Positions 7,601 through 51,599 are shown, numbered from the stretch's first letter. The stretch: 64,000 bases of DNA from Marsupella aquatica (GCA_973895155.1 OZ316891.1:9115875-9179874), one strand, 5' to 3'. The notes: a model not told the origin generated them from the letters alone. A program made the numbers and translations.

Positions 7601-8519
7601 AGGCATGGCAATGCACTGAGGGAGCTCAAAATTGATAGCAAGAGCATAGACCTAATAAATTTTCTATGTGATGCCAGTGCGCTCGCTTCAATATGTGCTT
7701 CAAGCCATGTTCAATGTGCAAGTGACCTTTTCTTGACTTGAAGCGGGAATCATTCACAGTTTGCATTTTCTTCTTCCTGCACTAAGCTTGAGCTCTTTAA
7801 GACCGTCCAATCTGAATCTGGGAGAACCCCATCAATGCCAAAGTTTACAAATTTCACAATCTGCTGCATCCCCGAACAGAAAACCCTTGCAACCCTCTTA
7901 ATGTTGTAAGCAATGCAAAACAAGACTGTTGAGGCTTCAAGACCATCCAATCTGCATCTGGGAGAACCCCATCAATGCCAAAGTTACCCCATTTATACAT
8001 CTCTCAGCCCGTGAGCCCAAACCCTGTTTGCTCAGTCTCCGTTCGCGTTAGCGTCAGCCCATTGGGGTTGTTTTTTTACGTTTAAGTGACTAGGTTCAAG
8101 CACAACCGTGTTAGCGTAACATATATAGCATAACCATTGGATATGCTTTAATGCTTGTGCACTATGTCTATCATGATAAGATTGAATAGATTATGCATTG
8201 ATTGCAAAGTCAGTATTATACAAAATCTCCAGTAATGTGATGTATTCACAAGGGCATATAATTTATTTGTTAATGCCAATTAAAATTCAAACTTTGTTGT
8301 AGTATGGTGAGTTAAATACTAGGTTATGGATACAATCAAAATTAAATTTACAATGATTTCCTAGTGAAATGTTTTTTATAAATCTACTAGAGATTAATAT
8401 GGAATGTATTTTATATGTTTTTCTGAGATTTGGGCACTCTTCCAAATAGGGCTCCAAATACAAATGGCCAGTTCACATTTAGAACCAAAAACCAAGATCA
8501 GAATGGGGTATTTATAAAT

Positions 8520-8810
8520 GACATGAAACAACAAACAATAACTAGAAACAGAAACTGATAACAGGAAAATGAGTGGTAATTTTTTTGATTTTTGATTTTT
8601 GAAAAAAAAGTTTGTTTTTTTGGCCGACAACATTTTTTGCTAGCGCCCAAAAGCTAGCCAAAAAATATTATAATTTTTAATTTTTTTTAAATGTGACTTT
8701 CTAGGAAATATTTTGACATTGTCATTTTTTCTGGTAACAGTAACTTTTTGCCGGTAAGAGGAAAATTTTTGCTGGTACCAGTAAACCTGTTTCCTGTTTA
8801 CTGTCATGCG
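8520..8810. mobile_element. Probable MITE related to the one at 50444-50729
   Basis: AAACAG/CTGTTT-rich inverted ends and an internal CTAGCGCC motif shared with the 50.4-kb element. Confidence 0.35.
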
Positions 8811-14300: not shown

Positions 14301-14500
14301 TCACATTACTTATCCCTTTACATTTGCTTAGAACAACACATTTTCTCCCTTCCATGATTTCCTACTAGCCTTCCCTAGTGACTTAGGGTTGCAAACCCTA
14401 AGTACTTTGCTAACACTACAACAACTTTCTTACTATTCCTTGTACAAACAACAAAAAAATTGACAAGTTCCTTACATACCCTATATTGAGCCGGTCCACA
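11373..14500. mobile_element. 3.1-kb non-coding TG...CA insertion (large solo LTR or non-autonomous LTR element)
   Basis: Begins TGTCAAAC and ends GTCCACA. It is flanked by the 5-bp TSD CTGGT (11368-11372 and 14501-14505), and removing it restores the host ORF. Confidence 0.85.
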
Positions 14501-14891
14501 CTGGTTGAGAGTCCAACCTTCCTTGGTATCCATCTTCCCAGCAAAATAATCAGAAGTGAGGTTCTCTCCTCTAGGGAGCAGACTAGTGCCATCGGTGCTC
14601 ACACCAAGAGCTTTGCCAACCACTTCCTTCGTCCACAACTTTGGTTGGGCTCTGATGGTATTGGTGAACTCGCTAGGAATCTCTCCAGTGAGTAGTTCAC
14701 AAAGCACGTCCTCGCTTTGCCATGCCCAAGTTAGGAGCGACAAATTTCTACATCCCATCTTCTCAAGATCGACTCTCAATTTCTCTTTCTCTTCTGGTCC
14801 GGTTGGGAGTTCAGGCCGTAGGGGCTTCAGAGCGATCGGCAAATCTTTCCTCTTGGATTTCCTCACTTTGCTCTTCACGGGGGTAGATCTC
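14501..14891 (-). pseudogene. Middle part of the same accessory ORF
   Basis: KSKVRKSKRK...EKMGCRNLSLLTWAWQSE...IRAQPKLWT...GKMDTKEGWTLNQ; in frame with both flanking pieces. Confidence 0.7.
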
Positions 14892-15337
14892 TGTTAAACA
14901 CTAATTCTTACCTACGATTAACTCAACTTAACCCTTCTCTATTCATTCACGTTTGTATTAACCGATTAATCGTCCAACAACAGGGTAATCTAGTAAATCA
15001 TTTTCATATTCTGAACATGTAATTTCTGCTGAATTTTCTTCAATGTCTACTTCTTCTTTCCACTTCCTGGGTAAAATCGTTAATACTAATCCTTCCCTGT
15101 ATACAATTTCTATAAATCCACACCACTCACGATAAGTGAAAATACAAATTGGAATACTCTCTTCCCTTAACCAACGAGTAATTAGGTGCGAACCAATCGA
15201 ACAGATGCACAGTTCAATTGGCCTGAGCCTAATTAGTGAGGAATTCTTCCTATCCTTGTCGCTAGTATTCATACTTCCAGTGATTGTGATCTGATTAGAT
15301 CCAATCATCTCATTGATACTCCCACCAGGAGTTCGAT

Positions 15338-17715: not shown

Positions 17716-18572
17716 CTATCAATTGTACTTAATCAAGATCAATCAACCATCATTCACAACTTCAAGGTAAAGTCATTTCCAAAAATTTGTTGCAATTGAA
17801 TAATAATCCGCGTTCTCAGTGCATACAAGATTGCTACCATCTCCTTTACTTAACTGCGACTATGTGCTCCATTGGAACAACATCTATTCGCTAATTGTGG
17901 GTGTATAATCCTCTGGAGTCATCAACTTCGTCTCGAAGCACATCGTTAGTAGCTGGGCTAACAAATAATACTCGAAACTATCCTCCTTGCACCATAACAT
18001 ACAACTTTTGCAAGCTCTTGTATTCTCTTTAAGCTTTATACTCAGCCGTCTAGTAATCCTACCAATTTGGAGTGCGATTGCTACTGGATACTCGTTGCGA
18101 TTCCATCGACACCATTCCAACACTCTCTTTAACTCAACTTTCTTCTTTGGAAGTCGACTTGGTATGCAACACCTCGGCAGATTGTTACTGGGCACCATTA
18201 TCACTGCTGTTGAAGGTCTTGTGTAGACTGAGCCAAGGATGTGTTTCGCGTCTACAAACTCCCCACACTCCGTTACGTGCTTCTCGTATCACCAGTTCGG
18301 TCTCAGCCGCGGTGGTATGCACAATCAGTATGACGTCTCCTCTTCTAGCATTGTTTTCTCCGCTTATCAAGTTCTTGTACTCTTCTTCATTCAGCGTCGT
18401 AATAATGGGCAGTTCCGCGTCTTCATTAAAATAGAATAATGTCCAAAATTATTTCCTCTCACTCATTTTTTTTCTTCCATTGAACTCACTTCTTGATCTG
18501 TTTCCAATCGTTTCTTGGTTTGGACTGCAAGTACTAGCAGCTTCCTTCTCTAGGAACCCTTCAAAGAGGCAT

Positions 18573-29315: not shown

Positions 29316-30215
29316 TGAACTCGATTGAAAAACTTAATTTTCAAGCATTGACCATTGATGGATCCAATTACTTATCATGGTCCTTGGATGTCGAAGCGCA
29401 CTTGGCTTCCAAGGACCTACAAGATACTATAATGATAGATACCAGCCCTACGCGACAGCAAAAGGCTAAAGCACTGATATTGATAAGACACCGCCTAGCA
29501 GATTCCCTAAAGTGCTAGTATATGAATGAGTATAACCCTCAGATTCTCTGGGAAGAACTACATTCCAGATTTGATCACACACGAACAATTTTCCTGCCAG
29601 CAGCAAGACATGATTGGATTAACCTACGAATTCAAGACCACAAAACCATTTTTGATTATAACAGCAAACTCTTTAGGATTGTCGCACAACTAGCAATCTG
29701 TGGACAACCCGTAAGTGATGAGGAGCAAATAGAGAAAACCTTGTCCACCGTACACTCTACTAACTTAATCTTATCCACACAGTACAAGAATATGCACTTC
29801 ACAAAATACTCTGAATTGATTGCGCACATGCTGTTGGCTAAAAAGCACCAACTCCTATTATTACAAAACACTCAAGAGAGACCTTCTGGCACGCTCCCAC
29901 CACAACCAAATCCAGAAACCCATTACAATCACAATTGGACTTCATCTCGGGGCAGAGGTAGTAGCCGAGAGAGAGGGGTTCATACAGGGGCCAGAACATA
30001 ACTACCAACGCGGTGGAAGAAGCAATGCATGTCAAGGAAAGGGTCGAGGAAGATATCAAAACAACGAGTGACGGTCATGCCATGAATACCTAGAAGAGAG
30101 ACAACGACAACCATCATCGAACAAGGAACCAATATAGGAGCAACTCAACAACATCAAAAGATGAATTTGATAACCCCCCAATTTGCTTCAAATGTGGAAC
30201 CAAGGGACACCTAAC
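29316..30215 (+). pseudogene. Ty1/Copia gag remnant (Bianca-like)
   Basis: MNSIEKLNFQALTIDGSNYLSWSLDVEAHL...KAKALILIRHRL...WINLRIQD...EKTLST, an RG-rich linker and the knuckle CFKCGTKGH; internal stops. Confidence 0.85.
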
Positions 30216-31246
30216 TTGATGAAATTTGAATTTTTCTAGAACCCATCTTCATGTTCAAATCACGAGACTTACTCTTTCCTTGGTCTCTAGATCCTAGACT
30301 AATACTTGTTCTCCCTAGCATGAAGGATCCACAAAGGTTTTCAAGATCGACCACCTATTGCAATGGAGAGCAAGTCATGAATTCACCAATCTCTTGGACT
30401 GGGCTCCAAAATCAATGGAAACCAAAATCACAAATTTATGAGTTCTCTAGAGAGGGTGAAAGTTGTGTGATACCAGTCAGATATCACTAGGCCATTCAAG
30501 GGTTTTACATTATTATATACATAGGTTATTGGATTAAAAAAAAAAAAAACTTACACAAGTCAGGATAGCCATGGAACCTTGGATGATGCTAAGATTTAGG
30601 GTATATCAATGGTTGGGTAAACTCTCCACTACCAACATTATTTGTGCTCAAAAGTAAATAGTGGGCATCGACCATCAGTTGTTCAAGGTATGAACAGTGC
30701 AAGCCAACTGCTGGTTGCTTAGGATTGTGTGCATTAGAGGGGATCAAACGATGAGTGTGGACCTCAACACCTAACACCATTAACCAAGCGGCTTACTTTT
30801 GAGGATGCCTCTTTGAGGAGGCTAGTAAGTTCATACCCACTTACAAAGATGAGGAGCTAGCTAGCCCAAATGAGCAGCAAGGGAGCAACAAGAACTAGTG
30901 TGCACAATTGTGGGGAGTTTATTGTGTTGCATTCATTGGAGATTTATTATTTATAAGCTCAAATCTATTCTTGGTTTTAAGTCTTATCTAGTTTCACTAA
31001 ACTAATCCATTTTTAATTTCATGTTCATTTTTGTGCTTTGTTTTTCACTCTCTCTTTCATTCAATTCACTTTACTACCCATTTCCTAAAGATTGTTCCTA
31101 TCCTAGGGTTCCACTCATTAAATGCAACCAAAACACTAGTTCATTTATTTCATTTGGATTTTTGAATGCCATACACAACCAAGAAATATAAATCCAAACC
31201 TCTGACTGTAAACTTTTGATGACCTCCATATTTCCTTATATTTCTC

Positions 31247-31543
31247 CTTGGGGGTTTCACTTCCACAAAAATGGCATATCACGTGCGACGAAGGATAGGG
31301 TCATTTTATTGGTTCTAAGGGAAAACTTAAGAAGTTTTGTAGAAGAACAATAGGGTCTTTTAAATTCAATTTTGAGACTTATAAGAACATTAGGGTCTTT
31401 TTAATCCAATTTTTAGAATATTCCAAGAATATTCCAACTTTATAGGGGTTAAAAAATTAAAAAAAATTCTTACATTTTAGGGGGTCCGAGGCCAAAAAAC
31501 CCCGCAGGCGATGGGGAGGTCCCCATATAGTGAGACCCCCGAG
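31247..31543 (-). mobile_element. hAT-type MITE, copy 1 (~297 bp)
   Basis: TIRs CTTGGGGGTTTCACT / AGTGAGACCCCCGAG; 8-bp TSD TATTTCTC on both sides. Confidence 0.9.
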
Positions 31544-33199
31544 TATTTCTCCCTTTAAATGATAAGTTATTTTTGTCAAAAAGGTTTCTAGCAAAAGCAA
31601 ACCATTCCCATCCACCAATATTCCCAAGAGTAGCAAGAGTTTTCCATTCCAAAATTCACTTTTGGTCAATCAAATGATTTTTATTCTTTTTGTGATTGTT
31701 TAGATGAAAAGGCTTATTCAAGAGACACGATTGTTCATTAATTAAAGTAATCTCCATGTGAATACTATAAATATAGGTTTGATTAAAGATTATCAAAAAA
31801 TCTCTACTTGTTTCTCTTGCTTTTGATAACTCTTACTTTGTAGCTTTGATAGTCTCTTGAACTCTTTCTGTCCATTTGTTGGTTGTTCCAAGTTTCCAAC
31901 CCACTTTGACAATTCTTTCTTTAAATTGATTCTTTACATTTCCCCTATCCATCTATTCCTAAAGCTTGAAGACAATGAAGATGAATCCCAAACCAGTCAA
32001 ATGCACCTGCTGATCCAACAACGAGGGAGCCAGGTTGCAATTGCATGTACATGTTTCTCCGTGTAGAACAATAGCAATCCGTCTATCGATTCATCAAACA
32101 TTAAGCCAAGAATTGTTGTTGTGGCAGAGGAGAACAAAATTGTCTCTCAGCAAAAACTCTTCGGGCTATGTGCCCCAACCAAATTTTGCTATGTGCCCAA
32201 TTGTAAATAATTGATTATTCATTCAATTGAAATTTGTGTAAATCTATAAATAAACAACATATTAATCATTTAATTAAAATTTTATGTCTATTTCACTTCA
32301 ATCTAAAAATAAATTATTTACCATAAAATATCCACAATGAGGGCCTTTTTTCACAACCACTACTAATTAATACCTTATCCTGCCAAAATTTGTCCTTTGT
32401 CCATTTACAACTAAAAAAAAAGTGGACATGAATCTTAGCCCTTCATGAAAATTTATTTTTCTGATACCATTAGATCCATCCATACCCCTTTCAATCTCAA
32501 TTGCCTTTGCCCAAGCTGCTAGTGCTTGAGCTAGATGAAAAATTAATTTAAATTAATCCCTGGATCCCCTTGTTGATCCAAGGAATGAGTGTCTTTAGAA
32601 TCAAGTAAAGTTGCTTTTTTTGGAGCAAAGAAGTGAATTTTTTATTAATGCAAAATTGTTTTTTGATACATGAAATTGGAATCCTGATCTACCTAACAAT
32701 GCCTAAGTCCCCTCTAGGTGGCATTGTACTTGCGCTTTGTTGTACAACGAGCTTGTTGGTATACACAAAGTATTCTCACGTGTATGATTGTGGAGAGCTA
32801 GTTAAATCAATATGCAGAAAATTGAGGGTTTTAATAAACTATTTTTGAACAACAATACTATATAAAAGGAGGTATTCTATTGTGCGAGCAAACAGGAGTT
32901 TTGCTAGCGAGGACAGCAGGCTAGCGAGGCAAGTTTGCGCGTAATTTGAGGGTAGTTAAGGCGCATTCCCAAGTAAGATTGTCGATATATATTGTGAAAG
33001 AGTTAAGGAAAACGAAAATGCAGATACTTAAATATTCACAAACTCAAAAATCGAGATCTTCACTACACTGAACTGAATGAAAAGGCATCATCACTGTCAA
33101 CAAAACCAGGTGAAAAAACCTTTCACAATCCATCTTTAATAAAACTTTGGTATGACAAATATCTTCTGGAATGAGATTGCATCTGAAATTGACCATGAG

Positions 33200-36100
33200 T
33201 CATTGAGAATCCTCTGATTCCAAATCATCTGAGGAATTACTAGGATCGCTACTGGACTCCCTATCAGTCTCCTCAGCCGAACCGTCAACATACTGTGCTA
33301 CAGTCCCAGCCTCATCATCTATGAACTGAGGGCAGTAAAGGGCTTTCCGAACACCCCTCACTGACCGCAGACCTTTCCCCTCCCAAGTCAAAACGACGGG
33401 CGCTTCATCAACCTCCTTTGCAGTCTTTTCAGCATAGCATGGAAGCGCAAATCCCTTCTCAGGGGTCACAAGAAAATGATCCTCGATTTCTTTCCGAAGA
33501 TGGAATCTCTCCTCCGAAAACCAATCCGAACGCCTATCACTGAAGAAATCACCAGAATCGGATCAATACTAAACATCCGAAAATTCTACAAACAAAAGAA
33601 AAACACCAAATAGGGAGTTCTACATCAAAGGCTAAGTGCTTTACTCCATCCCGTAATGTTGGCCAATTGTACGGAGCCATTGGAGAACTTCATGGTTACT
33701 CTAAAGGGTCCTAACCAGTGAGTGTAAAGCTTCCCTGGAAACCTACTATACCTACTGTCATAAAGTAACACAAGGTCGAATTCATCCTTCTCGTCTGAAG
33801 GTCTTCCCTGATCATCTCCTAGGATGGTGAACTCATCATCCGACCCTTCATCATTGGGATCATCATTTTTTGGGTCTGCGGCCCCTTTCAACTTCTGGGC
33901 ATGTCTATCCAACACATTTGCCAAAGTTCTTTGCGCACACAGATGAAGAATGTCTCGATCTTCAACACCCACAACAAATCTCCCAGCGTATTCCCCAGCG
34001 GAAAAAGCACTTCCATCTCCAACAGTCCAGTCAATGACAATGTCCTTTCGCAAAGTAAGGATCTCCATTACGGCTTGCATGAACCCAACTGACAATCTAT
34101 TGGAACCTGTGAAAGCCGCCCTGGGACTGGGATCAGTTTTTGGGTAGCAAACACTCAACATCGATTTATGGCGGGCATCCTCCGAGGAAGTCATTGGAAC
34201 ATATCCTGTATGTTTCGGGACTTTTGCCGAGAATTCCACCTTGCAGAAGACATCCATAATGAGAGTAACCACCTGAATTGAAAATGAGAATATGTAAGAA
34301 ATGGGCACTTTTGGTTAGCAAGCTCGCTAGCAAAAATTGCACAAAAATATGGAGGATATCTTACCTCGATGTCCATATCTGCCTGATACAAAGGAGATGA
34401 AAGCAAAACCGAATACTGCCGAACATGTTTAAATTTGTTCTTTTGCTCGACGGCAGAAAAAATTTGCCTCATATGGTTATAGTCAGAGTTGTGAAGAACT
34501 GTGACATAACCATCATCGGCAAGCATCGGACGCATGACTCCAAAGAAATAATATGGTAATTTCTCACTCCAAACATTCCACTTCGGGACCTCCCGGTCTG
34601 TGACGCTTGTTCGATGACCCGTGGGAAGGAATATGAAACCCAAGTGAGCACCAATTCCAGCGTAATTTTTCCATTCATCATCACGGCGTTTGGGTGTTCG
34701 CTCGATTTGCTCATTCCAGACAACCACTGATCCGCATCGCCCATCTAGGGAGGTCTTACTTTCCTCTGGCTAATTGAGTTTGCAGTTTCCGTGAGATTGC
34801 TCTTTGCCAAGAAATGCCTCTCACCGTCCTTCTTAAGACCACACATTCGTGCTACTCCTTGCGCGACGCATGCTTCCTCCTCATCCGAGTCGGAGAGAAT
34901 TTGGACATTGTGCTTCCTCTTTAAACGCTTGATTGAACCCAGGTCCACAACAGATTTTGTTGTGACCTCAACATCAGGAGACTTGGGTTCTTCTCCATCA
35001 TCCGCCCCACTCTTCAAACTGCCAGAGGCTGCAGCCTTTCTCTTCTCTGAAAAACATGTTAATGTCAGACAGGTGACTGAGACAAAATTACTCCGAATGA
35101 GGTATGAAAAAAAGAAGAGAAAAAGACTTACTTTGCTTCCCAGACAAGACTGATCCATCTTTGGACGTGTCCTTCACCGGCACCTTCCGAGGTCTCCTCG
35201 ATCTACTCCGGTCGACAATGGCAGCTACACCAAGAACAGCTTTCTCCATTGCCTCACATCCGCCAGCCTCGGCTTCTGCAGGAGCTAATTTGGACTCTGT
35301 AATGTACGACTCTGGTATCAAGCCTCGATTTATCATATGAAATGCTGCCTTCTCTGCTGTGTCAAATGTCACTGCCCATTTGTCTGATTCTAAATACCAT
35401 GGACAGTGAAGGACTTCCCACTCACTCATCTTCCTTGGAGCCTCCACTCCCTCACATGGGTACATCGAGTACTCTCCATATTTAACGGAGGTTGGATCCT
35501 CTTTTACTCCTGCTATCCAAGGCGAGAAGCAAGCAGGATAGGACCACCAATATGTTTTGTCAGCAACTTCTCTATCCACAAAAAAACGATACGTATATCT
35601 CTTCGCCCTCCTCCGAAAAAGTGAGATGTCAATCTTCTCACCCGACTTTGGTGGCCAAATCTGTTTGAAAAAACAAGATTTCACTCTCGTTTGGAAATCT
35701 TCAAAGTCCTCCTCTATGTCAAGGATCAGCGATGGCTTTGTCTTCTCAGACGAAGTAAGGATCCTTGCATTTGGAACAGTTGGGATCAACTCTGAAATAA
35801 TCTCAGACATGAGCGAAGAACAAATTGACTCAACCTGCTCCCATACAGCCCATCGGTGAAGCAAAAGTTTTGTTTCGCTGTCCGAGAATTGACCAGGGTG
35901 GAAGTACTTCTTGCGAAGCTCAGGTCTGCATTGTGCCTCGAGGAGTACACATCTGAGCTGGGGAGTCAACGATGAGACACCCGTAAATAGCCTCGCACGA
36001 TCGAGACCACATGACACATTACCCCTTTCTTTATCGTCTGTTCGTTGGGCCTCCTTCCTCTCATGTTCGCAGTAGTTGTGCATCTCAACACACTTCTGGA

Positions 36101-37288
36101 AAAAGTCACCAAACTCAGGATTCAGGAGAGGTCCAATCTTTGGCACCTTCACATTCCAATCTGCCAGTTGCTCCTTCATCATGTCTTTGACTGCCATGTC
36201 TTGCGCAGCTTTTGAAAGAGGTTCTCCTTGCGCTTCTTTCAACTGAAACTTCTTCTTCAAATCTTCCGTCTGCGCTGCAATATTAGCAGCAGACAGAATG
36301 TACGTGCAGGCATCGAGTGTCATGTTCTTCGAATACCAAGCCGGTTTCCTGATATTTGCCATCTTCTGCTGGAAAAGTTTGTAGTTGTCTGCATCGATGA
36401 TATCTTTGTATACAGAAAGGTCATTACTGAGAACCTTGTGGACTCTCTCTGCTTCAAGGACCCAAGAATTCTCAACGTGACATTGAGTCAACCTGAACAA
36501 AAGAAACAGGTCAGCGAGATCGCTAAGAAGAGGAAATGAAAGAATTTTATATACAATTCACAGCTTGAAGGAAAAGAAACAAACCTATTCAGCACATGCA
36601 TTGCCGACTCAATCTGCACGAATGAGTTCTTGTCACCCTTGAAAATTCGGCAAACAACTCGAGGATGATATTTGACATCATGGGGATTCTCGTCCGCAAG
36701 TTGCATCCATGAGTACAGACGATGATTTCCATCAAAAACATAGAACATTTTGTCTTTCAAAATTTTGAAAGCTTCGTGAGAATCACATTCCCTCTCGAAT
36801 TCTTCATTCTGAAGAATCCACATGTCATCCCACGACTCCCGAATCACATCCTCGCACATCTGGACAAGGCCATCTTCGCCGATCATTTGGACGTAAAATC
36901 AAGGCGCATCTTCGATGTATCCCAGCGTCCGGAATTCATTCTTGAGTGTCTCGATCGCAGTCGAGTTTGTTTGCAAGGACCGAACGATCTGCATGTTTCG
37001 CATTCTGCAAAGGGGAATCCTCGGAGGAGCGAGCGGGAATCCAAATTTGTCATTTCCAAAAGGGAAAAGATGGCGATTGATGACAACAGAATAGGGTTCT
37101 GAAGCTCCAGGTTGAAACGTAGGATTCACAACATCTACTTGGTTCACCATCTTGGGCCTCCTCGGTGTTTTCAATCCCGCCTGGAGCGCCTTCTTGTTCA
37201 CTGTAGACCTGGTCTCCCTTCGGCTTGACTCGACTGACTTGAACGATCCTATTGATGACAAGCTCTCGGGTGAAGACAATGGCTCCAT
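33200..37288 (-). pseudogene. MULE cargo gene: ParB/Srx-like N-terminal domain + linker + degenerate beta-class N4C/N6A DNA-methyltransferase-like domain + acidic tail
   Basis: GT-AG introns at 36584-36493, 35131-35047 and 34364-34273 splice in frame. N-terminus: IPLCRM..VR...GY...FYV...FYVFDGNHRL. C-terminus: HLGFIFLPTG..VPKWN..MLADDGYVTVLH..FMQAVMEILTLRKDIVIDWTVGDGSAFSAGEYAGRFVVGVE. There is a premature TGA at 36899 and a frameshift near 34770. Confidence 0.7.
33640..33778 (-). mobile_element. Gypsy integrase C-terminal (GPY/F) fragment inside the MULE
   Basis: DLVLLYDSRYSRFPGKLYTHWLGPFRVTMKFSNGSVQLA. Confidence 0.8.
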
Positions 37289-37926
37289 CAGGGGGTCCGT
37301 GAAGTGATAAGGGTATGAACAGGTCAAGGTCGAGGGTGACACGCTTTACAAACATAAAAAACCCAAGAATCGATCTTCCAATCAAAGACAGAATCATACC
37401 CTCGTCTGTTGCTTTCACCTGAATGCTGCGCCCGGTCGTGAAAAGAGATACAAATATTCTGTACGACTCTTCTCGCAATCATTTTTCAGACACCGTCAGG
37501 TATACATGTACTTTCAGAAATACGAACCACCGAACTCACGACTGAAAGAAAAGTATCTAATGACAAAGAGACAGGTGTCCGGTACTGTACCGTACCGTTG
37601 ACATATAGGTACCCGTTGACCAATTCCAACGGATATAAACGGTCACAATGGTCTCTTATGAGGAATACTAAATACATGAACTCATGAAGGGTGTTTTGTA
37701 AGGATTTGAAACAATTTTACTTGGTTCATTGAGCTAGCGAGATCGCTAGCTTGATCATTCCGCAAATAGTGTCATATAAGACAAAATAACGGTCAGATAA
37801 CGGGAATAAGAGGCATTTATTAAATAAATACGTTGAGTCCAACACCTACACAAGCACGTTTCCTCATATGTATTTGGAGAAAGAAGAGAGCGAAGTATCT
37901 CACATTGGGGATTTCTGTAGACTGTA

Positions 37927-40900
37927 ATGTCCAAAACTTCTAGCATGTCTTCATTGGGATCGAAGGTTGTGATCGAGAGAAAGACTATGGGTGATGTTGT
38001 TGTTCTGAATGTTCCGAAGAATACTATTATCTCTGTCAAGGAGTCTTTTCTCTCATCGAGGTTTGGGCTTTTGAAAGATGATTTCATCTGGAAGTTGTTC
38101 GTTCTTTACTCTCGGGATGGATCCAGAAGTCACGAGGTGTTGGATAATGGTTCAGGAATATTGCCAGAAAGAGCTTGGGACCTGAAGTGTGGTTCAGATG
38201 TAGAGCTAGTCTCATGTAAGGATGACATTGCACATATCAATGTTTCCGATCCAGAATCCCCGACACGCCCGTCACCTGCAGTACCAGAAATTATTGACAT
38301 ATCCCCTGAGAGTGTGGGTAGGGATCTCTCTTCTGTGTCGACAAAGTCTTCTGAGAAATCCATTTTTGAAGCAGTGAGTCAAAACGAGTTTCAATCTCAG
38401 CCAGTTCTTTATCGAGTTAGTGCATATGATGCCTTTCTCAATATTACTGGGTCAAGCGAGTTGGCAAATTTCCGCAGGGGAAACGATTGGAAGGAGATTC
38501 AAGTGCAGACTTTGCCCACTTCATACAACGGAAACTGCGTTTTTGAGCTTCCTCCGGTCGAAGGTCAATTTCGTCGAGGATATGGTCTTCAGGACATGGA
38601 TAGGGATAATGACGGCTATCCATGGACGAGACTTCTCACAACTTCAGCTAATCTCAAACCTCGCAATCACTGGTCTGTGTCAAAAGTCAGATGTGCCGGT
38701 GTACTTGAATGCCAAAATCTAGTCTGTAGAAAGTTGAAGCACACCGGTTCAAAAAATGACTCTTCTTTCCGAGGAAAGGGACAATTTACTGAGCCGTTTC
38801 ATCTTGGTGAGCTTGTGGAGGAAGGAGGGTTGGTGTGCGGATTCTGTGAAGAGAGGCCTCTCTGCATCCGTGAATGTCCGGCTAAGCTTTTGTACGTCTA
38901 TCCTAAGCCGTCTCTTGAGTCAAATGTTGCGAAACATATGTCTCGATTGGCTGTTCACATGGGTTTCCATGACCACGTTGTTTGGAAGGGGAAATCTTGA
39001 TTGGCAAAAAAACAGGCGGAGGAGATAGTTTCTGGTGTTCATAAAGCGAATCCCGTGTGTACGCCAGGGCGTGTTCTTAACAAGTGTATAGGAAACCTGG
39101 TTTCTCTTTTGCATCCAGAGTCTTCTTCAGAACTATCAAAAGAAGAAGAGAGAGAAATTTGGGAATCGATGAAGGTTGTGTCCACTGTTGAGAAATTCCA
39201 GGCCATATTCCGGAGCGTGAAAATGGATAACCCAAAAAAAGGTGAGTTGGATTCTCTTCGTGAGATGCAAGCACGGAATAATTTTCCTTACGTTCAGAGG
39301 TACCTTTTCCCTGGGCAGGGGAGCAAGACCGATAGGGCTCATGTCTTCAAAATGAGTACAAATGGGCCCGGTTCTGGTGTCGATATTCTCAGGCAGATGA
39401 AGAGTGGAGGTGAGCTGGAAGGAGCATGGGTCAGTTCTGATGTAATGCGGAGAATAAGCACTGGGTGGCTGACTTTTAGCGCCCATGTGTACGACCATAA
39501 TTACAGGTCCCTTTGTACCATCTTCACTTGTGAGCTCCGTGCGGAGGACTCCTTATCTCTTGAAACCGCATGGAGATATATGATTGAAGTTGCCTCTGAT
39601 CATGATGTGCATGACCCACTCATTGGAGGATTTATTGTCGATAATGCCGAGGCTGGATGGATCGCCATTCGAAATGTTTTTTTTGGAGGTGTCCGTCACC
39701 CACAGAAGGAGCACAGTGATGCCTTTCACTTTGCTCAATCTCTTCGTCGTCACACATTGGAGGGTATTTGGGAAGATTGCCATCGAGAGCACTATAAACT
39801 GTGGGAAAGGCTGAGAACAGCACCAACATATGTTCAGGCCTACCGTGTTGCTGACGAAATCCATCCTTGGTGGAAGGAAGGAAACTGCTATGCTGGGAAA
39901 TTGAAGTCTCTCCAAGGATGGTTATCTTGGTGGGTCATGAGGTGGAGGCAGTGGGGGAACTTCATCCGCGTTGTAAGTGTCCAATTTCATTTCTCTTTGA
40001 CGTCATTGTTTTTGCTAGCGACCTCGCTAGCATATCAGGTCTGACTGGGGACTACTATTTCGCAGACGCAAACCGCAATGGAGTCAGCCTTGATGCCAAA
40101 TTGTACTGGAGCGGAATCAGTCCATGCATCTATGAGATCCTGCCAAATGAAGAAACTAGTGGGATTGATTGAAGCATGTGAGGTGGACCAGAATCGTGCT
40201 GCGGGGCAAATTGCTGCTTTTACTGCCTACAGTGAAGGTGTTCACAGAGGCCAGGGGCCGACCATTTTTGAATCAGCATATAGGAACGCCGATGCTATGG
40301 GATCCATGGATGCTTACGAAAAGGCAACAAATCTTTTGCTTGAGTCTTCAGCTAAGTATGAATTCTATAGAACAGTTCCATTACATGGCGATCTCCGAAC
40401 AACATCCACGAAGAGGAAAGGGAAAGCTTCAGCTGTAATCCACGAGAATGACTCCCACAGACATGACAAGGTGTCACGCACAACAGCTTCTCCTTCAGGA
40501 CTAAAAAGGCGTAATCTCTATCCTGAATTTTGCTTTGTCAATGTTTTGGAGACTTCTGCGGACCCAGAAGTAGCAAATAATACAACTTTGGCAACACCTG
40601 TCGGAGGTTGTTCTGCTGGAGTTATCCATATTTCAGATGATGATGGTGATGATGCAAGTCGTAATGTCAATGATACCGTGAAGATGGGGACTCAACCTTC
40701 GTGTGATGTCGGGGATGACCATCGGGATGCTCCCCAAAGGATCCCTTCCATCCGAGAGGTTGATGTTCCTTGTGGGACCTGGCATCTCAGGCGGAGCGGT
40801 AGAGGTGTTGGACCTGTTTGCAACGGGTCGGTTGACCGAAGCGTTTTTGGAAGAGATGAATGTAGAAATATCATCAAGGAGACTGGATGTAAGTCCGCGC

Positions 40901-41640
40901 AAGGGGGAATTGTTGGAGTCGCCATTCACGGGTTGTGATTATCGTCTCCACATCGCCAGTTGTTGTACTTCTATCCTAATAATAAGTGTCACAAGAGCCG
41001 AGGACGCAGAACTCTAGCTCAACTACCCCCCCCACCCGAGTCGCTCAAGGTTCAGCGTGGGACTTGCCTCTCCCATCCCGAGATAGAGTTTCTGCTGGGA
41101 TTAGGATTCCAGATCAGTGGACTCTCCTATGTGGATGCAAATCAAGTTGGAGAGTTCCCGTCCCCCAATCGGGTCAACCTACGAATTGATGTTAACTCAT
41201 TCCCCGAACGAATTGATCTAACTAATGTGGACCGTCGGTTGAAAACCCAAAATGGTAAGGGTGCACGACAGCGTTTAAGCAATACTCCAGAGTTGCTCAA
41301 GCGCATCGTTTCCGCTACACAAGAATACATGAGAGTTGTCGGAAATGAGAAGGTAACTACCGGAAATGGATGGGGTTGGAGATACTTGATCGCCACTCAC
41401 GAGACTGATTCACAAGTTCTGCACACATATTGGGTGCAAATCTGTTGTTTCCCTTCGTGTTCTTGTGAAGACTTTTATAAGAGGCATACACGAGGGAAAC
41501 CATACATGTCTTGTAAACATCTGCTGTGGGTGTATTTAAACAAGTTTTCACTCAACCTAGAGAAGGATGACCTTGTCAAACAGCCAATTCTGACTGTTGG
41601 GGAAGTGAAGAGTTTAATTCCGTTACAGATAGGGGACTAG
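37927..41640 (+). pseudogene. MULE transposase with N-terminal Cys/His zinc region, DDE core and C-terminal SWIM finger; intron 39973-40065; in-frame TGA stops ending at 39000 and 40938
   Basis: CAGVLECQNLVC..CGFC..C..HMGFHDH; WVSSDVMRR; FIVDNAEAGWIAIRNVF; AFHFAQSL; GAESVHAS; SWIM CSCEDF..SCKHLLWV. All four ORF pieces are in one frame after splicing. Confidence 0.85.
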
Positions 41641-42262
41641 TTGTTTATTGGAGATGCTAATTATAGGGTGGTGGGATGGATTACTCGAGTTCGTGGTTTC
41701 ACAAATATCAATCTGTTTTCACCGAGTAAATCATAATGTTAGCAAGGTCCATAATTGTAACTTTTATGGTGTTTGAGTTTGTTGTTTAAGGTTAGCGATC
41801 TCTCTAGTCTTAGGAAGTCAGCTGCATCCTGACAGAAACATCCTACTTTCAGACGTGTTAACCTATCGACAAGTTTCTATAGAGTTCACGGTTTGATCAT
41901 TAAAATGACGCCAGTTTTTGGCTAGCGAGATCGCTAGTCTGATCAACGGAATTTAGGACAGGATGTGACATGATGTTTAGGGTTTAGGGAGGGAAGTTTT
42001 CCCTGAAGTTGTTGTGGTAATACTCGATCGAATTGATTATCGAAGATGAACACAGTTCTATACTAGCGATATCGCTAGTCTGGGAAGGGTCCAACTGTGA
42101 CTTCAAAATAAAAGTACTATGTACAAAATGGCATCCAGAGAAACACATAGAAATGAAAGGACCACCCAAACTTTACTTCTCATACATATTGAAAGTACAT
42201 GAGGACATGTGGTTTGCTTGTAACTGCAAAAATTTCAGTAAATCCACAACTTGACTCTACCC

Positions 42263-42691
42263 TCAGGGGCTGGACGCCTTCCATGCATCGGAGTCAGTGT
42301 CTGACTCAGAATCGTAATCCGAAGAGGCGAGGCGTTCCTTGGTCCAGTAGTCATAGATCTCCCTCTCAATCCAATACTGCTCCTCTTCTGCGAGCCTCTT
42401 CCTCTTCGATACAACCTCACGCTGTGTGGTATCCACCTTTGGCTTCGGTGGAGACTTCGCTGCTGGAATTAACTTTGGAGGAGTAGGTGTTCTCCTCAAT
42501 GATGAGGATGATCCAACAGATTGACCGAGTTCGGTTGGGACACTGCTGCCTGCGGAGACCTTCACAGTCTCTGCATCGGGTTTCTGCTTCGGAGGAGAGT
42601 CATCTTCAAGCGGGCCGTCTGTCGCCGGGTTGTAACGACGGATCTCAAGTCGCCATTTCCCCTGAGGAGGATTGCTTGGAACACCAGACAT
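42263..42691 (-). CDS. Third MULE gene, 142-aa unknown protein (S/P-rich, basic KRKR, acidic tail)
   Basis: Open ORF with ATG inside the element, convergent with the transposase; no recognised domain. Confidence 0.5.
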   Translation of the reverse strand: MSGVPSNPPQGKWRLEIRRYNPATDGPLEDDSPPKQKPDAETVKVSAGSSVPTELGQSVGSSSSLRRTPTPPKLIPAAKSPPKPKVDTTQREVVSKRKRLAEEEQYWIEREIYDYWTKERLASSDYDSESDTDSDAWKASSP

Positions 42692-44909
42692 TTCTCTGCA
42701 CTTACGAAACCCAAACAGTGATTAAAGAGAACGAGATTCAACAAATGGAAACACTATTCACGATGAAATACGATGAATATCATGCCTTGTCGGAGAGTTC
42801 TTCCCTTAAAACAGCTCAGAGCATAGACCCGTGCTTACTTGAACTAGATCTGGAGAGTGTTGAGAACTTGGAACACTGATAGCAGTTCCGAATGAAGGAG
42901 ATCAAGTCGGACGCGGTGGAAGTGATCGGGAGAATGATTTGGAAGACTGGTGCTTTTTGGGCTAGCGGATTTGTTTAAGTGGACGGTTCGACGCCTTGGA
43001 TTCGCGTCTGGTTCGAACGGTAAGTGTCCCATTCACTTGAAAGTGACTTAATTAGTGTCCAAACGGCCTTAATCCTCCTTTCCTCGGCAGTAATGACACG
43101 TTGATTCTTTTCACGCGGGAATCGCGCAGTACTTTTTTGTTATTACTCTTCCTCGGGTGGGAATTTTCACATGTGGAAGCCTGTACGTGGAGACCGTACC
43201 TCGTATGAGTGGCTCAATGTGTTGGCATCATTAGACTAGCGATTTCGCTGGCCTGAAGATATGTCATTTTGATCTATTGCGTTCACGGGACTAGAATCGT
43301 CCATGGGTAGCCGTATATATTTATTGATCGAACAGGGTCTCCATGCTAGCGAGGAATATTCCAGACCTTTTTTGGGCCCCAATACAAGGTGACATCTTGC
43401 CCGTGCGAGCAAAAATTCTACTGTTTGCTCGCACGTTACAATTACCCATATAAAAGTATTCATGGTACCAATAGGCTTTCATAGCGCTGCGTCAATTTTT
43501 GTGAGCTCCCCATTAAGCAGACAATAACAATGATTGTGTTGGGTGTAATCTACTTATTATCTTGCTCGATACAAAAGCTATACCCACCTTTGGATGATGT
43601 TGGACTGGTTTAAATTTGAGGGATTGAGCTTCAGGTTGTTTGAGAGCCTATGACAGGTCTTTCTCTTCTTGATCAGGGAGAAGCTCCTTGAATGTTTCCA
43701 CCAACGTAGCAGCCTTGTAGGTAAAGAAACCCAACAACATGAGGGTGAGAAATTTTTCAATGTATGAACTTTGGCTACTCTTTGCTACAATGCAATAGAC
43801 TCTATCAAGTGCAACGCAATTATGCAATGATGAGTGATCATCAAACTTATTTTACTCATGCAATTTTGGCAAAGCAGTTCTCCAGTCTCACCTTGAGTTT
43901 TTTGTTGGGACGATTTGCTATCGAAAGTCATGGTGGAAAGCCCAAATTGGCATCGTTGCTGATAAACCCTTCACCAGAGTTTGTGAACACCAAAAGACTG
44001 TCTATTCTAATTCCGTGAGACCTACAGAGAGTGCACGTACACAAAGTAGCAAAAGAAATGATTGTCAATTGCTGGTTGATTGAGTTGATAATTCCAAGAT
44101 GGTGTCAGGTTGACCAAGATCACCCCAGTGCTCAACTCGCCAGACACTCACAAAATGATTAAGACCTTAAAAAAGGTTAATCATCAAAGAAATGGAGGGG
44201 GGCTGCCAAATAGGTTCTCCTTGCTAGCAAGGTCTCACCACCCTTAAAACCGAGCCTTAAAACATTGGACGGTATGTTTTTTATCATAGGTCGTACATGG
44301 TTCCAAATTTTAATTGACTCAAATTAAATCAAGTAAACATCTCAACAACAACAAGCATATGACCGTACGTAGTTGGGATGCAAAGAAAAGTTCATCATCA
44401 CAGATATGCAACAAGACGGTGGTCGTCACTATAGAGGAAGAGCTCAGCCACCTGTAACAAATAGGACCTTGAAACTGAGAAGAGCAATGGATTAAACTTC
44501 ACATATGAAAGCAACATCCATTGCTTTGGAAGCACCAAGTCACCGGCAGTTTTGCTAGAGCAATGAAACAACCAAATTGCAACAACTTGCACCATGAGAT
44601 TACTTTGAGTTCACAACTCACTGCCCCATAACCTCAATGAAAGTTTCATGAGTGAGTAAGACTGTGTGAGAATTCAGTTCTCATTTTTTCACAATTAAAG
44701 AGTTGTGATGATCAACTTTCATTCCACCTTGGTTTCTCATGTTAGTTTGGCCTCTCAAGAAGAAGGTAATTATAACTGGCTCTCCTCAGCAAAATGTGAC
44801 GGATTCCCAAATTCTCAACAATTGGACCTTGTAGAAAGTGCATGCCATCACACCGAATGAAACCTTGTAGCCAAGTTGTCCCAGTCCAAGTTCTACCACC
44901 ATTCACAGA

Positions 44910-45206
44910 CTCGGGGGTCTCACTATATGGGGACCTCCCCATCGCCTGCGACGTTTTTAGGCCTCGGACCCCCTAAAATGTAAGAAAAATAAATTATTTT
45001 TTAACCCCTATAAAGTTGGAATATTCTTGGAATATTCTAAAAATTGGATTAAAAAGACCCTAATGTTCTTATAAGTCTCAAAATTGGATTTAAAAGACCC
45101 TATTGTTCTTCTACAAAAATTCTTAAGTCTTCCCTTAGAACCAATAAAATGACCATATCCTTCGTCGCACGTGATATGCCATTTTTGTGGAAGTGAGACC
45201 CCCGAG
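44910..45206 (+). mobile_element. hAT-type MITE, copy 2 (inverted relative to copy 1)
   Basis: Perfect TIR CTCGGGGGTCTCACT / AGTGAGACCCCCGAG and 8-bp TSD TTCACAGA. It is nearly the reverse complement of 31247-31543. Confidence 0.9.
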
Positions 45207-46704: not shown

Positions 46705-48760
46705 CACTAGTAGAAACCGGGGTGTTTTATGACTAAGTTTTACGACTGCCCATGACTGCTTGTGACTAAAGTTTGGGGGATATCAAGCCAGTCGTAATTT
46801 AGACATGGCGTCTTATTTAAAGTGACTGAAATTGAGTGGTCAGCTCTGTGACTTGGGTTTAAGACGCGTTTTGTGACTAATAATGACCATAGCCATACTA
46901 AGGCATTTTTGGTTTACACCGAGCTATAGTCTTAAAAATGACTACAAAGTAGTCATTTTCCTGACTCAAGACGAGGTATGAATTAGTCACAACTAGTCAG
47001 CAAGGAAGAGTACTAGCCTGTTGCATATATGACTATTGCTATGGTTCAATATCGGAACACAGGCGACTGATTACGACTAGTTAGTCTTAAAAGTGGAGAG
47101 TATATGGCCACATTTGTGACCAATGATGACTATAGACAGTTGATGACTTTAGAAATCTTAAGATTGGGCTAGACTGGTCAATCTTATTGGGGACCATGAT
47201 GTAATATATCATAATCGTAACTTAATGACCCAAAATGACTCATTAGTCTAGTTCACGACCATATTCTTTGGCCAAGTGGTCAAAATTTTGACTCGACCCA
47301 AGGCGAATGGGGTCTGCTCATATGACTAAAACCATGACTATACAAGCACAAGCATACAAGTCTTACATGAAAACAGGAAAGACCAGATAATTCTAAGTAT
47401 TTGAATCTTAGAACTCATATTAACTATTGAACACACATGCATAATTTCATACAAACAAAAATGTCACAATATGGGATGATCAAGGGAATCTCAATTGAAT
47501 TCTGCATTATGAAATATTTTGGTAACATTGGCACTAATCATGCATCTGTACTCAAGTATCAGAAACTACAAACCACACATTTCAGGTGTCCCTATGTAAT
47601 CTGTTGGCCACAACACAAAAGAGTTCAATGCATCTGCAATAGTTGTCTGTGGCGGGTCATCATTCAAATTAGGAACTGGTAGAGGGGTCTTTGGCTTCAC
47701 AAGCTTTGTCAACAACACTACGGAATACCCTGTTGGCACTTCTTTGCAATGGAATGTAATTTGCTCAGAGCGCAATTTTCCAAACCCTACACACAACTCA
47801 TCTTGCTTTGGTGAGAACAGTGCATACTCAGGCTGTGCCTGAGTTTTCAATTCCGCATCAGCTTTACGCTTCTTTGCCGCTGTCACTTTACCACTTGCTC
47901 TGGCCCAACTCTTCACCTTCCGAATAGGTCTCCCAACTGCTGAAAGTTCTACTTCTGCTCCAGCGTCCATGGTCACATCCTGCATGTCACCTACCTGTGA
48001 TGGAATTTGTGTCTCCACCTGGCCCTCTGTTTTGCATCCATTGTCACCACCTTTGGCAACTTCTATAACCTCTTCATATGGATCCAAACTGGGGGTATTT
48101 AGTACATTGGTAACCTCTGCAATAACAAAATAGCAAGTGAACAGCCTTATCTCCAATCATGCAAACATACAAAAAAACACATTGCTTGCATCATCTCCAA
48201 TCATGGAAACATATGAGAAACCTCACCTTCCATTGTTGGGGCCATGTTACCCTCCACATCCCTTTCTGTGGGCTCCACCTCCATTTGCTGTTCAATGTTA
48301 CCCTCTAGATTCATCAAATTGGAGTAATGTGGCAGGTCTCTAGAACCTCCATTCCATATTGGATTCATTGTACATTTGTATTGGTCTTCTTGCACACGAA
48401 TAAGCTTTTGAACATCTTCCTTTAATGCAGTCAACTCACTTGCCATTTCACTCAATTTCATGGTCACATCATTCTCATGAGACTCCATACATTTCAGACG
48501 ATCTGATAAATTGCTGAGAGAACATGATCCACCTCCCTGCAAACACATACAATAGAGTCAATCCATTTTGTCTGGAAAGTAATATATGGTCCCATTGTCT
48601 ATGCAAACTACGGAATGTGGACCTCAAAAGACACTAGCTGGTATGAATACTCACTTGGTTTGAAAGATCACTCTCGCCACATTTTTGCGACTGTTTTCTT
48701 GCTTCAGCTCTCACCTCTTCTTTAGTAGGGGACCAATACATCATTCCCTCTTGTAGAACT
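46705..48760 (-). mobile_element. CACTA/En-Spm element end with TnpA-like gene remnant
   Basis: Terminus CACTAGTAGAAA followed by ~650 bp of short TGACTA/TAGTCA subterminal repeats. The spliced ORF ends FHCKEVPTGYSVVLLTKLVKPKTPLPVPNLNDDPPQTTIADALNSFVLWP, a Tnp1/En-Spm-like C-terminus. Confidence 0.8.
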
Positions 48761-50420: not shown

Positions 50421-50443
50421 CCTGCTTTGTTGATGAGGCTTTA

Positions 50444-50729
50444 CATCGTGCCAGGAAACAGGAAAATGATTTCCTGTTATGAGCAAAATTTTACTGTTAC
50501 AAGCAAAAATGAATATAAAAATTTTCTCATTAAATCTCAAAATTTTCAAAATATTTTTAAAAACAATCATTTTTGGCTAGCGCCAGACGCTACTATTACT
50601 AGCTTGGGGCGCTAGTAAAAAATGTCAAAAATACCAACAAAAATTAAAAAATTTCAAAAAAATTCTCATCCATTTGCTGTTTACTATTTTCTTTTTACTG
50701 TTTTCTTTTTACTGTTTCCTGGCACGGTG
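50444..50729. mobile_element. MITE with 18-bp TIRs
   Basis: CATCGTGCCAGGAAACAG ... CTGTTTCCTGGCACGGTG (1 mismatch) with an AT-rich interior; no TSD recognised. Confidence 0.7.
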
Positions 50730-51599
50730 GTTATACCCTTTGTTGATCATGCATTCAGTTTTGCTTAGCCATTCCGGTGTCCGGATGACCGTATTTTCTG
50801 ATAAGAGTATGTTGGCTCTTATGAAGTTAACCTTGCATGCCTATAAATTCTACACTAAAACCAAAATAATAATTCTAGTAACAAGGGTAGTGGGTATTAA
50901 GAAAGGTTCAAGTGAAACTAATATGCTATTAAACCCTATTTCACCATACTTGCGGACCAACACATCACAAAAATTAGTTTTCTTACGACATATGATCCTA
51001 ATATGTCCAAGAGAAAATAAAACAGGAATATCATCTGGACTCTAATTGAGACCCATGATTTCAATAAAGGACAAAGATAATGCATTCCCACTCCCCTTGG
51101 TGCGACACTACTAGATATACTATTGGCTTGTTAGAATCTATAACAGCAGCTGCAAACTGAGCTCCAAAATGATAGGTTAAATTTTGTTGTCTGCTCCCAA
51201 GGGAATGTGTGGTAGGATTGATTCCGTGAACGACAAGGAGTAGAGGACGATGGCATTAAGGAGCTCTCAGCTGAAGGAATGAAAAAGAATTGGGGAATGT
51301 GGAAGGGATCGGCTGATGAAGAGTGAAGGATGTTGGGGATCATTTTGCTTAAGAGGGAATTTGAAGAAGAATCAAAGTTCGTGGTAAGAGCAATGGAGAA
51401 GAGAACCAATTGAGGGGAAAAATGGCTGAATGCAATGGCATTCTGGGTCTTAGCCTTTGAACGATTGAGCTTTGGTGCAATAGAGGGAGAATAAGTGCTG
51501 GAAGAGCAAAGAACATTGAATCATTGAGAAAGAATCAAGGAAGGATCGGAGTTTCATAAATGATCGGGAGTTGTTGGGAATACATCGTGAAAGGTGATC

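Follow-up and report, generated by a model that had tools for sequence, protein, structure and literature searches.

We analysed a 64,000-nt stretch of Marsupella aquatica DNA (GCA_973895155.1 OZ316891.1:9115875-9179874; hereafter the window) and find that a decayed Mutator-like element (MULE) within it carries eight copies of a palindromic site, CTAGCGA-NN-TCGCTAG, in its introns and spacers. The palindrome is real and constrained, and the element that hosts it is an apparently undescribed, liverwort-type Mutator family. Beside a transposase and a third gene (ORF3), the element bears a cargo gene whose product is a strong candidate for the protein that binds the palindromes, because its relatives have a predicted ParB-fold domain. 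In the reading that we favor, at a probability of roughly 45%, the palindromes would be parS-like sites at which a cargo dimer loads, to spread along the element and counter silencing. The narrower proposal, that the cargo binds the palindromes, is probably correct. The sites, their placement, their conservation, a family-specific symmetric change in their arms and the methyltransferase-like tail of the cargo are established by the results that follow.

When the window was scanned for the palindrome with up to three mismatches, ten matches were found against 0.80 expected, a number that no shuffle out of 100 attained. The site is therefore enriched, and the scan recovered, at the positions and with the letters given, all eight copies listed by an earlier inspection of the DNA by a model (the sequence-only reading). 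These eight lie inside the element. The remaining two matches, at 14661 and 15250, are half-site-like, have three mismatches each and fall in a region with a Gypsy-type open reading frame (ORF). All 8 full sites are non-coding, in an element of which 25-28% is non-coding (P ~1.5-3.4e-5). The proposed 16-bp, 7-2-7 palindrome is right as to its core; the fuller site spans 18 bp, RCTAGCGA-NN-TCGCTAGY, with an outer R...Y pair and often a T-tract outside it. Arm positions 3, 4 and 7 are invariant in 16 of 16 arms, the centre is free in sequence and fixed at 2 bp, and 14 of the 16 CpGs (two per copy) are intact. At 37734 the arms extend to 20 bp in total (9+2+9), as had been noted, and they do the same at 40015. 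The outer pair is broken once, at 36527, by a change private to the window copy (G>C at full depth in runs X1-X3). The half-site RCTAGCGA occurs 14 times in the window (1.10 expected), 13 of them within the element. The full sites and the lone half-sites are as follows.

34314..34331, palindrome 1, in cargo intron 3; its deviating arm contains the sole CTRAY branch-point consensus of the intron (-43)
36510..36527, palindrome 2, in cargo intron 1; its deviating arm contains the sole CTRAY of the intron (-19)
37733..37750, palindrome 3, in the divergent promoter; perfect
40014..40031, palindrome 4, in the transposase intron 39973-40065; perfect
41791..41808, palindrome 5, in the transposase-ORF3 spacer
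41921..41938, palindrome 6, in the transposase-ORF3 spacer
42062..42079, palindrome 7, in the transposase-ORF3 spacer; a perfect 18-mer
43235..43252, palindrome 8, upstream of ORF3 and close to the right end
32903..32910, plus strand, lone half-site GCTAGCGA, in the slot occupied at the right end by an inverted copy of the core of the terminal inverted repeat (TIR)
32920..32927, plus strand, lone half-site GCTAGCGA
43345..43352, plus strand, lone half-site GCTAGCGA, close to the right end

Introns were placed from splice signals and homologs and measure 92, 85, 92 and 93 bp. Three of the four carry exactly one copy, in agreement with the sequence-only reading. CTRAY is the branch-point consensus, and the most-deviating arms of the copies in cargo introns 1 and 3 supply the only CTRAY of each intron; these two copies therefore probably serve as both site and branch point. 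The offset of -19 in intron 1 is also the offset in the motif-free intron 2. The arms had been described as conserved, the centre as free and the flanks as unrelated, and all of this holds except that some flank likeness remains among the 3' copies. Likeness is otherwise mostly absent (best z 2.4 among 28 pairs); GTCT is common to the three 3' copies, and 41922 and 42063 are 78% alike across 40 nt, motif included. It is possible that an old local duplication took place there. Between palindromes 6 and 7 the plant telomere repeat TTTAGGG occurs twice (41976-41989), and one X1 contig departs from the element at 41959 into CCCTAAA repeats.

We used contigs of four runs from two studies to compare copies of the element. 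Across 41775-42095, 29 variant rows fall at 25 positions, and 0 of the 25 lie in the 54 motif bases of this 321-base segment (p 0.008). By this test, which is biased towards the motif, the motif is more conserved among copies than its neighboring bases. Separately from this count, summed depth in run X2 climbs from ~1,000 to 12,000-17,800 at two of the three sites, and loose ends lie immediately outside them, indicating that more distant contigs match only around the motif. Contig depth over the element is far above that of its flanks in all four runs (in X1, hundreds to ~1,000 versus ~30 in the right flank), which suggests that the element is present in many copies, summed depth not being a copy number. 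Other copies join 37662-37667 to an insert that resembles the 40015 site over ~25 bp and is absent from the window copy. From these contig joints, other members of the family appear to have a ninth, polymorphic promoter site.

The palindrome also changes in a family-specific manner. The transposase core has 19 relatives, four of them named from Calypogeia fissa, and a metagenome contig (L001) encodes a transposase that is 64% identical and keeps the orthologous intron, there 317 bp long. This intron contains three copies of TATTG-CTAG(C/T)GC-NN-GCGCTAG-CAATA, in which the inner arm positions have changed symmetrically and the 2-bp centre is unchanged. With the free centre, the invariant arm positions, the non-coding placement and the conservation, this symmetric change sustains the earlier view of a site for a dimeric protein and not a simple duplication. 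A perfect hairpin at L001 1172-1231, with arms of 29 bp, is centred on the middle palindrome of the three, which suggests template switching at this site. A metagenome scan with the transposase as a single query gave 0 of 157 candidate stretches, and an alignment query gave 1 of 88. Two miniature inverted-repeat transposable elements (MITEs) in the window have the variant arm as well.

50435..50737, MITE B, a related non-autonomous element of 303 bp with a 10-bp target-site duplication and the same end architecture; variant CTAGCGC-arm sites at 50576 and 50609-50616
8519..8806, MITE A, a decayed relative of MITE B; variant site at 8639

Sites in the MITEs are looser and more widely spaced than the MULE palindromes and share the same CTAGCGC arm. 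Three of the four window matches to RCTAGCGC lie in these two MITEs, with 0.67 expected window-wide. Two site codes in one genome, each bound to an element family, point to a reader encoded by the element. A C-variant copy with two mismatches, CTAGTGC-TT-GAGCTAG (32519-32534), lies in a different repeated stretch, 350 bp to the left of the element, and may be chance or a remnant. The exact 18-mer was also found at 14 loci in viral contigs, one exact copy each, with a second, 2-mismatch copy in only 2; this pattern looks like chance.

The element that carries the palindromes has the following parts.

32860..32868, left target-site duplication ATATAAAAG, 9 bp
32869..43447, Mutator-like DNA transposon, 10,579 bp, a decayed copy of a multi-copy family
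32869..32895, plus strand, left degenerate TIR, 27 bp, with core GTGCGAGCAAACAG at 32882
43421..43447, minus strand, right degenerate TIR, 27 bp, with an inner inverted copy of the core at 43403-43413
43448..43456, right target-site duplication ATATAAAAG, 9 bp
37927..41640, plus strand, transposase with a Cys/His-rich N-terminal part, a DDE-type core and a C-terminal SWIM-like CxC...CxH; intron 39973-40065
42263..42691, minus strand, last exon of ORF3, of low complexity and without a family match; its putative first exon lies at ~42837-43130
36585..37288, minus strand, cargo exon 1, predicted ParB/Srx-fold domain, DGNHR at 36733-36719, premature stop ~36899
35132..36492, minus strand, cargo exon 2, conserved helical region (weakly like the ParB-family DNA-binding domain) and a further domain of unassigned fold
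34365..35046, minus strand, cargo exon 3, a linker followed by the first part of a beta-class amino-methyltransferase fold, about half of it; motif IV reads FLPT, and the frame is broken near 34760
33775..34272, minus strand, cargo exon 4, second methyltransferase half with the S-adenosylmethionine (SAM)-binding motif I (DWTVGDGS); 3' end uncertain
33203..33562, minus strand, short downstream ORF or last exon, which also ends some Riccia gene models

MULE TIRs begin with G; they may be long, and in non-TIR MULEs they are short and degenerate. Here the 9-bp duplication is within the 9-11 bp of MULEs, and terminal inverted repeats are present (27 bp, degenerate). In the transposase, D147, DNA and DAFH are conserved, as are an E further downstream and a finger of the form CxC...CxH, and these may correspond to the DDE residues with (C/D)xxH and the SWIM finger of MULE transposases; a Pfam search of the transposase gave neither a MULE nor a SWIM match. 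The window copy is decayed by stops and one frame break. Its transposase has stops at ~38998 and ~40936, the latter private to this copy. No tandem arrays were found in 32869-43447, and no ParA-type ORF among the ORFs of the element. A 125-bp insertion at 33648-33772 is not in other copies in three of the four runs, and its translation resembles a fragment of a long-terminal-repeat retroelement.

For cargo exon 2 we found 120 relatives at E <=0.001. Of the 28 cargo relatives looked up, Riccia sorocarpa accounts for 12 and Calypogeia fissa for 2, and no organism is given for the other 14, so that the named relatives are liverwort hypothetical proteins only. Transposase and cargo are linked in Riccia too, because one Riccia gene model joins pieces of both. 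Window cargo exon 1 shares 33% identity with a full-length member from Riccia (P0145, 1207 aa). An AlphaFold2 model of another relative (P0147), built from an 88-row alignment, is confident over approximately residues 10-580, and a Foldseek search with it ranked ParB-CDP, Noc-NBS and ParB first. Using VIA, residues 26-182 aligned with ParB N-domains at Z 7.0-7.3 and a root-mean-square deviation (rmsd) of 2.6 A over 92-96 residues, and the model aligned with sulfiredoxin (Srx) at a lower Z of 3.7-5.0. In an unbiased structure search of 48,161 chains, KorB, PadC, an archaeal ParB and Srx took ranks 1-4 (Z 5-7). The motif DGNHR, which resembles box II, the phosphate-binding arginine motif of ParB clamps, is found in the window copy and in most relatives that cover the region. 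Because these middling Z values agree with each other and DGNHR is conserved, we assign a predicted ParB/Srx fold to the N-terminal domain of the cargo, as modelled on a Riccia relative 33% identical to window exon 1. Residues 183-398 of P0147 matched the SopB DNA-binding domain (Z 4.1, rmsd 4.8, 112 aligned) and Spo0J 117-201 (Z 3.9, rmsd 3.0, 85 aligned), neither match rising above background; a ParB-like fold followed by a DNA-binding-domain-like region is the right order for the ParB family. Other searches were negative: exon 2 had no match among longer proteins and no usable match in Atlas, no meaningful match came from sequence searches of the PDB, whether by single exon or by the A2 profile, Pfam had no family for cargo exon 2 or ORF3, and neither a pattern scan of viral contigs (0 of 43) nor a GTDB search with the ParB-part alignment (0 of 57) returned a cargo relative.

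The C-terminal end of P0145 matches the N6/N4-methyltransferase family PF01555 (E 5e-5, under the gathering score for the full-length protein), as do 13 of 22 aligned cargo members. Window cargo exons 3-4 align with the methyltransferase part of these relatives, and beta-class methyltransferases in the PDB match the cargo tail (E 0.003). The tail has a permuted order, with motif IV before the SAM-binding motif I, and motif I is kept. The catalytic motif IV consensus of beta-class enzymes is (D/N/S)PP(Y/F/W). In the cargo, each of the 27 motif-IV matches reads D[LMI][PS][STI], and the window copy has FLPT; DPPY is found in 0 of 27 and the aromatic residue in none. Because motif IV is degenerate, catalysis is doubtful, and the domain most likely serves to bind DNA or to shield bases without being catalytic. 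In Riccia sorocarpa (P0143-P0183), many copies of this part of the cargo are auto-annotated 'Trimethylguanosine synthase', an apparent mislabel.

ParB binds 16-bp palindromes and spreads from them, and VirB antisilences at a distance in this way (PMC10770331). By analogy, we propose that a cargo dimer would clamp at each palindrome through its predicted ParB-fold domain, slide in a manner dependent on a nucleoside triphosphate (NTP) and spread along the element, with anti-silencing as the outcome. Such spreading would counter host silencing in the manner of VirB/virS with a VANC-like logic, and the methyltransferase domain would ride along on the clamp. With a site each 1-2.5 kb in introns and spacers, even limited spreading could reach the three genes and both ends and leave codons unconstrained. 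ParB-N6N4-methyltransferase fusions are common in phages (10.1101/2025.10.10.680097). In its fullest form our proposal is that liverwort Mutator elements captured a phage-type ParB-methyltransferase gene, that an NTP-gated sliding clamp of the parS/ParB style, loaded in a eukaryotic nucleus at family-specific palindromes in introns and spacers, clears the element of silencing and that site and protein co-evolve between families; we put this forward tentatively, as conceivable and short of probable.

Several observations weigh against loading and spreading by the cargo. No Foldseek match reached E 0.001, all structural Z values are below 8, a level that the tool calls common, and the helix-turn-helix match of the cargo is at noise level. 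The fold model is that of a relative; window exon 2 folded alone poorly (predicted local distance difference test score 37). The box II variant of the cargo is DGNHR, and canonical ParB box II is GxxRxxA. The variation test favors the motif, since palindromes interrupt the contigs, differences close to the ends of contigs go unlisted and extra depth dilutes the shares, and its runs come from two studies only. Covariation across families is based on one contig and two MITEs. The CpG and CHG observed/expected ratios of the whole element are 0.74 and 1.03, with nearby CpG at 0.34-0.54, and coding CpG is 0.63-0.69, the same as the 0.66 of the Gypsy ORF; we dropped this pattern as a sign of past hypomethylation because the coding values are equal. 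ParB-fold fusions are often not clamps, as 17 of 28 purified proteins bound no NTP, and the nucleotide preference of ParB-fold proteins is not predictable (10.1101/2025.10.10.680097). The last three points of this kind concern the transposase. The half-site and the TIR core (inward TTT[GC]CT[CG]GCAC) agree at 8 of 11 positions, for the MULE as well as for the MITE family, the left half-site at 32903 aligns with the inner inverted TIR core of the right end, and the gene-less 303-bp MITE retains sites.

These three points, and the clustering of lone half-sites at the element ends, would suit palindromes that arose from the TIR core and act as secondary sites of the transposase, for synapsis, autoregulation or transposase-driven activation. 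The AtMu1 transposase by itself binds and hypomethylates its own ends, although its peaks sat at TIRs and not at introns (10.64898/2026.08.24.746577). However, all 16 arms have A in column 7, where the 5 TIR cores have C or G, and in column 10 the arms have G (15 of 16) and every one of the 5 cores has A. Family changes in the TIR core and in the arms hit different columns, the halves of the two face opposite ways, and a transposase reader would leave the deeply conserved ParB-fold cargo without a site. We regard the transposase as the main rival to the cargo, if a less likely reader. It is rather less likely that the cargo binds without sliding to counter silencing, either as a local writer of N4-methylcytosine or N6-methyladenine with an atypical active site or as a static, KorB-like repressor or autoregulator. 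The PF01555 and PDB matches, the retained SAM motif and an Asp-x-Pro motif IV that is conserved in Riccia would fit this alternative, as would the one site between the divergent promoters, and true N4-methylcytosine enzymes exist in liverworts (10.1101/2021.02.12.428880); the loss of DPPY and of its aromatic residue, FLPT in the window and scores under the Pfam gathering cut-off speak against it.

We consider it quite improbable that the sites are bound by ORF3 or by a host transcription factor. ORF3 is the unassigned third gene of the element, and VANDAL elements use their third gene for such a role (PMC5735166), yet its readable exon is of low complexity and without a family match. A host factor is disfavored because two site variants coexist in one genome, each bound to an element family. 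The palindromes could instead be RNA hairpins for splicing or transcript processing: the three motif-bearing introns fold better than their shuffles (z -1.7, -2.2 and -2.7) and the motif-free intron does not (+0.7), two copies overlap the sole branch-point consensus, and one L001 copy centres the 29-bp-arm hairpin. Folding is, however, expected of any palindrome, and a hairpin would need no particular arm sequence and no centre kept at 2 bp. With five of the eight copies and all lone half-sites outside introns, and one of the four introns without a copy, hairpins seem very improbable. Least credible of all is a neutral by-product, in which a short, functionless palindrome multiplied through insertion footprints, template switching or gene conversion. 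The polymorphic promoter copy, which is like 40015 over ~25 bp, and the weak flank likeness among the 3' copies are in its favor; the motif nevertheless stays in the same intron over 36% protein divergence, with a symmetric change, 14 of 16 CpGs are intact, and islands of conservation lie at the motif.

Loading of a spreading cargo dimer at the palindromes has parallels in several known systems. VANDAL/VANC of Arabidopsis (Hosaka et al. 2017, PMC5735166) is alike in being a Mutator-type element with an accessory gene and a family-specific short motif, which lies in non-coding DNA (introns, intergenic stretches and termini) and differs between related families. VANC motifs are 8-9 nt long and lie in tandem repeats, whereas the sites here are single, dispersed palindromes of 16-18 bp, and 'palindrom' is absent from the main text of that paper. 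Compared with the VANC protein by description, the cargo is set apart by its predicted ParB fold, its methyltransferase fold and the lack of a match to a known plant family. With ParB/parS, Noc/NBS, KorB/OB and VirB/virS the cargo shares a ParB/Srx-fold N-domain (predicted here) followed by a helical region, and the element shares with them a 16-bp palindromic site with several copies dispersed over mobile DNA (PMC10770331, PMC11790492). Unlike the ParB clamps, the present system resides in a eukaryotic nuclear transposon on a chromatin substrate, has no ParA, has a DGNHR-type box II, and has large insertions and a fused, degenerate methyltransferase; any helix-turn-helix and C-terminal dimerisation domain would be putative. 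Because there is no ParA, the element is not a ParABS system; nor is the cargo a canonical amino-methyltransferase. The KorB operator TTTTAGC-G-GCTAAAA shares the TAGC arm and T/A tracts; its spacing differs, and we set the likeness aside as coincidence (PMC11790492).

Phage and prophage ParB-N6N4-methyltransferase fusions have the same domain order and also occur on mobile DNA (10.1101/2025.10.10.680097, PMC4738411), and by this analogy they are likely the ultimate source of the cargo. The cargo differs from them in having ~500 extra residues between the domains, a degenerate motif IV and an intron-containing gene within a plant MULE. The eukaryotic cases given in PMC4738411 are haptophytes, chlorophytes, chytrids and Trichomonas. 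Like the Spm/CACTA TnpA and the AtMu1 transposase, the proposed reader would be an element-encoded factor with family-specific motifs, which in those cases lowers methylation of the cognate element; their sites form dense terminal clusters read by a transposase-derived factor, in contrast to the mostly internal, single sites here (10.64898/2026.08.24.746577). Marchantia MpDN4MT1 is likewise a prokaryote-type amino-methyltransferase fold in a liverwort nucleus; compared by description, it is a host enzyme with TSPPY, and the cargo lacks TSPPY, is fused to a predicted ParB fold and is borne on a transposon (10.1101/2021.02.12.428880).

Our literature searches, with subscription papers, Repbase-type libraries and bioRxiv supplements outside their reach, found no report of such a ParB-type liverwort Mutator system. 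Term searches found no liverwort or plant taxon terms in six supplements of PMC12704722 and no 'Marchantia' in the supplement of PMC4738411, long files being possibly incomplete. That a factor with few motifs acts on a whole multi-kb element is the most enigmatic feature of VANC (PMC5735166), and a ParB load-and-slide clamp, if true, would give this enigma a concrete physical answer; standard ParB assays make the clamp idea directly testable. It would also bring ParB clamp biology into the eukaryotic nucleus; the eukaryotic example of a ParB fold that is named is sulfiredoxin, a non-clamp enzyme (10.1101/2025.10.10.680097). If true, liverworts would have a second use of a prokaryote-type amino-methyltransferase fold beside MpDN4MT1, and family-specific pairs of site and protein could serve as orthogonal tools that keep transgenes active. 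Even with the transposase as the binder, the element would still bear a ParB-methyltransferase cargo, common to the Riccia and Calypogeia relatives, of which our searches turned up no description.

Other repeats and genes surround the element. A 298-bp repeat occurs in opposite orientation at 31247-31544 and 44909-45206, 95% alike, at very high depth and with GGGGGT...CCCCC-type ends; this pair is a separate MITE family and not the ends of the MULE. Remains of a Gypsy-type retroelement occupy 10090-17393 on the minus strand, with a gag/protease-like ORF and two more ORFs downstream, and Copia-type gag/pol fragments lie at 29519-30490 on the plus strand. An ORF at 47566-48156 (minus strand; PLPVP...TIADA...FVLWP) is strongly CpG-depleted and resembles the accessory domain of plant DNA transposons. 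At 3821-4429 on the minus strand is an exon of a probable host gene, which by eye has a transit-peptide-like start and a thioredoxin-like end.

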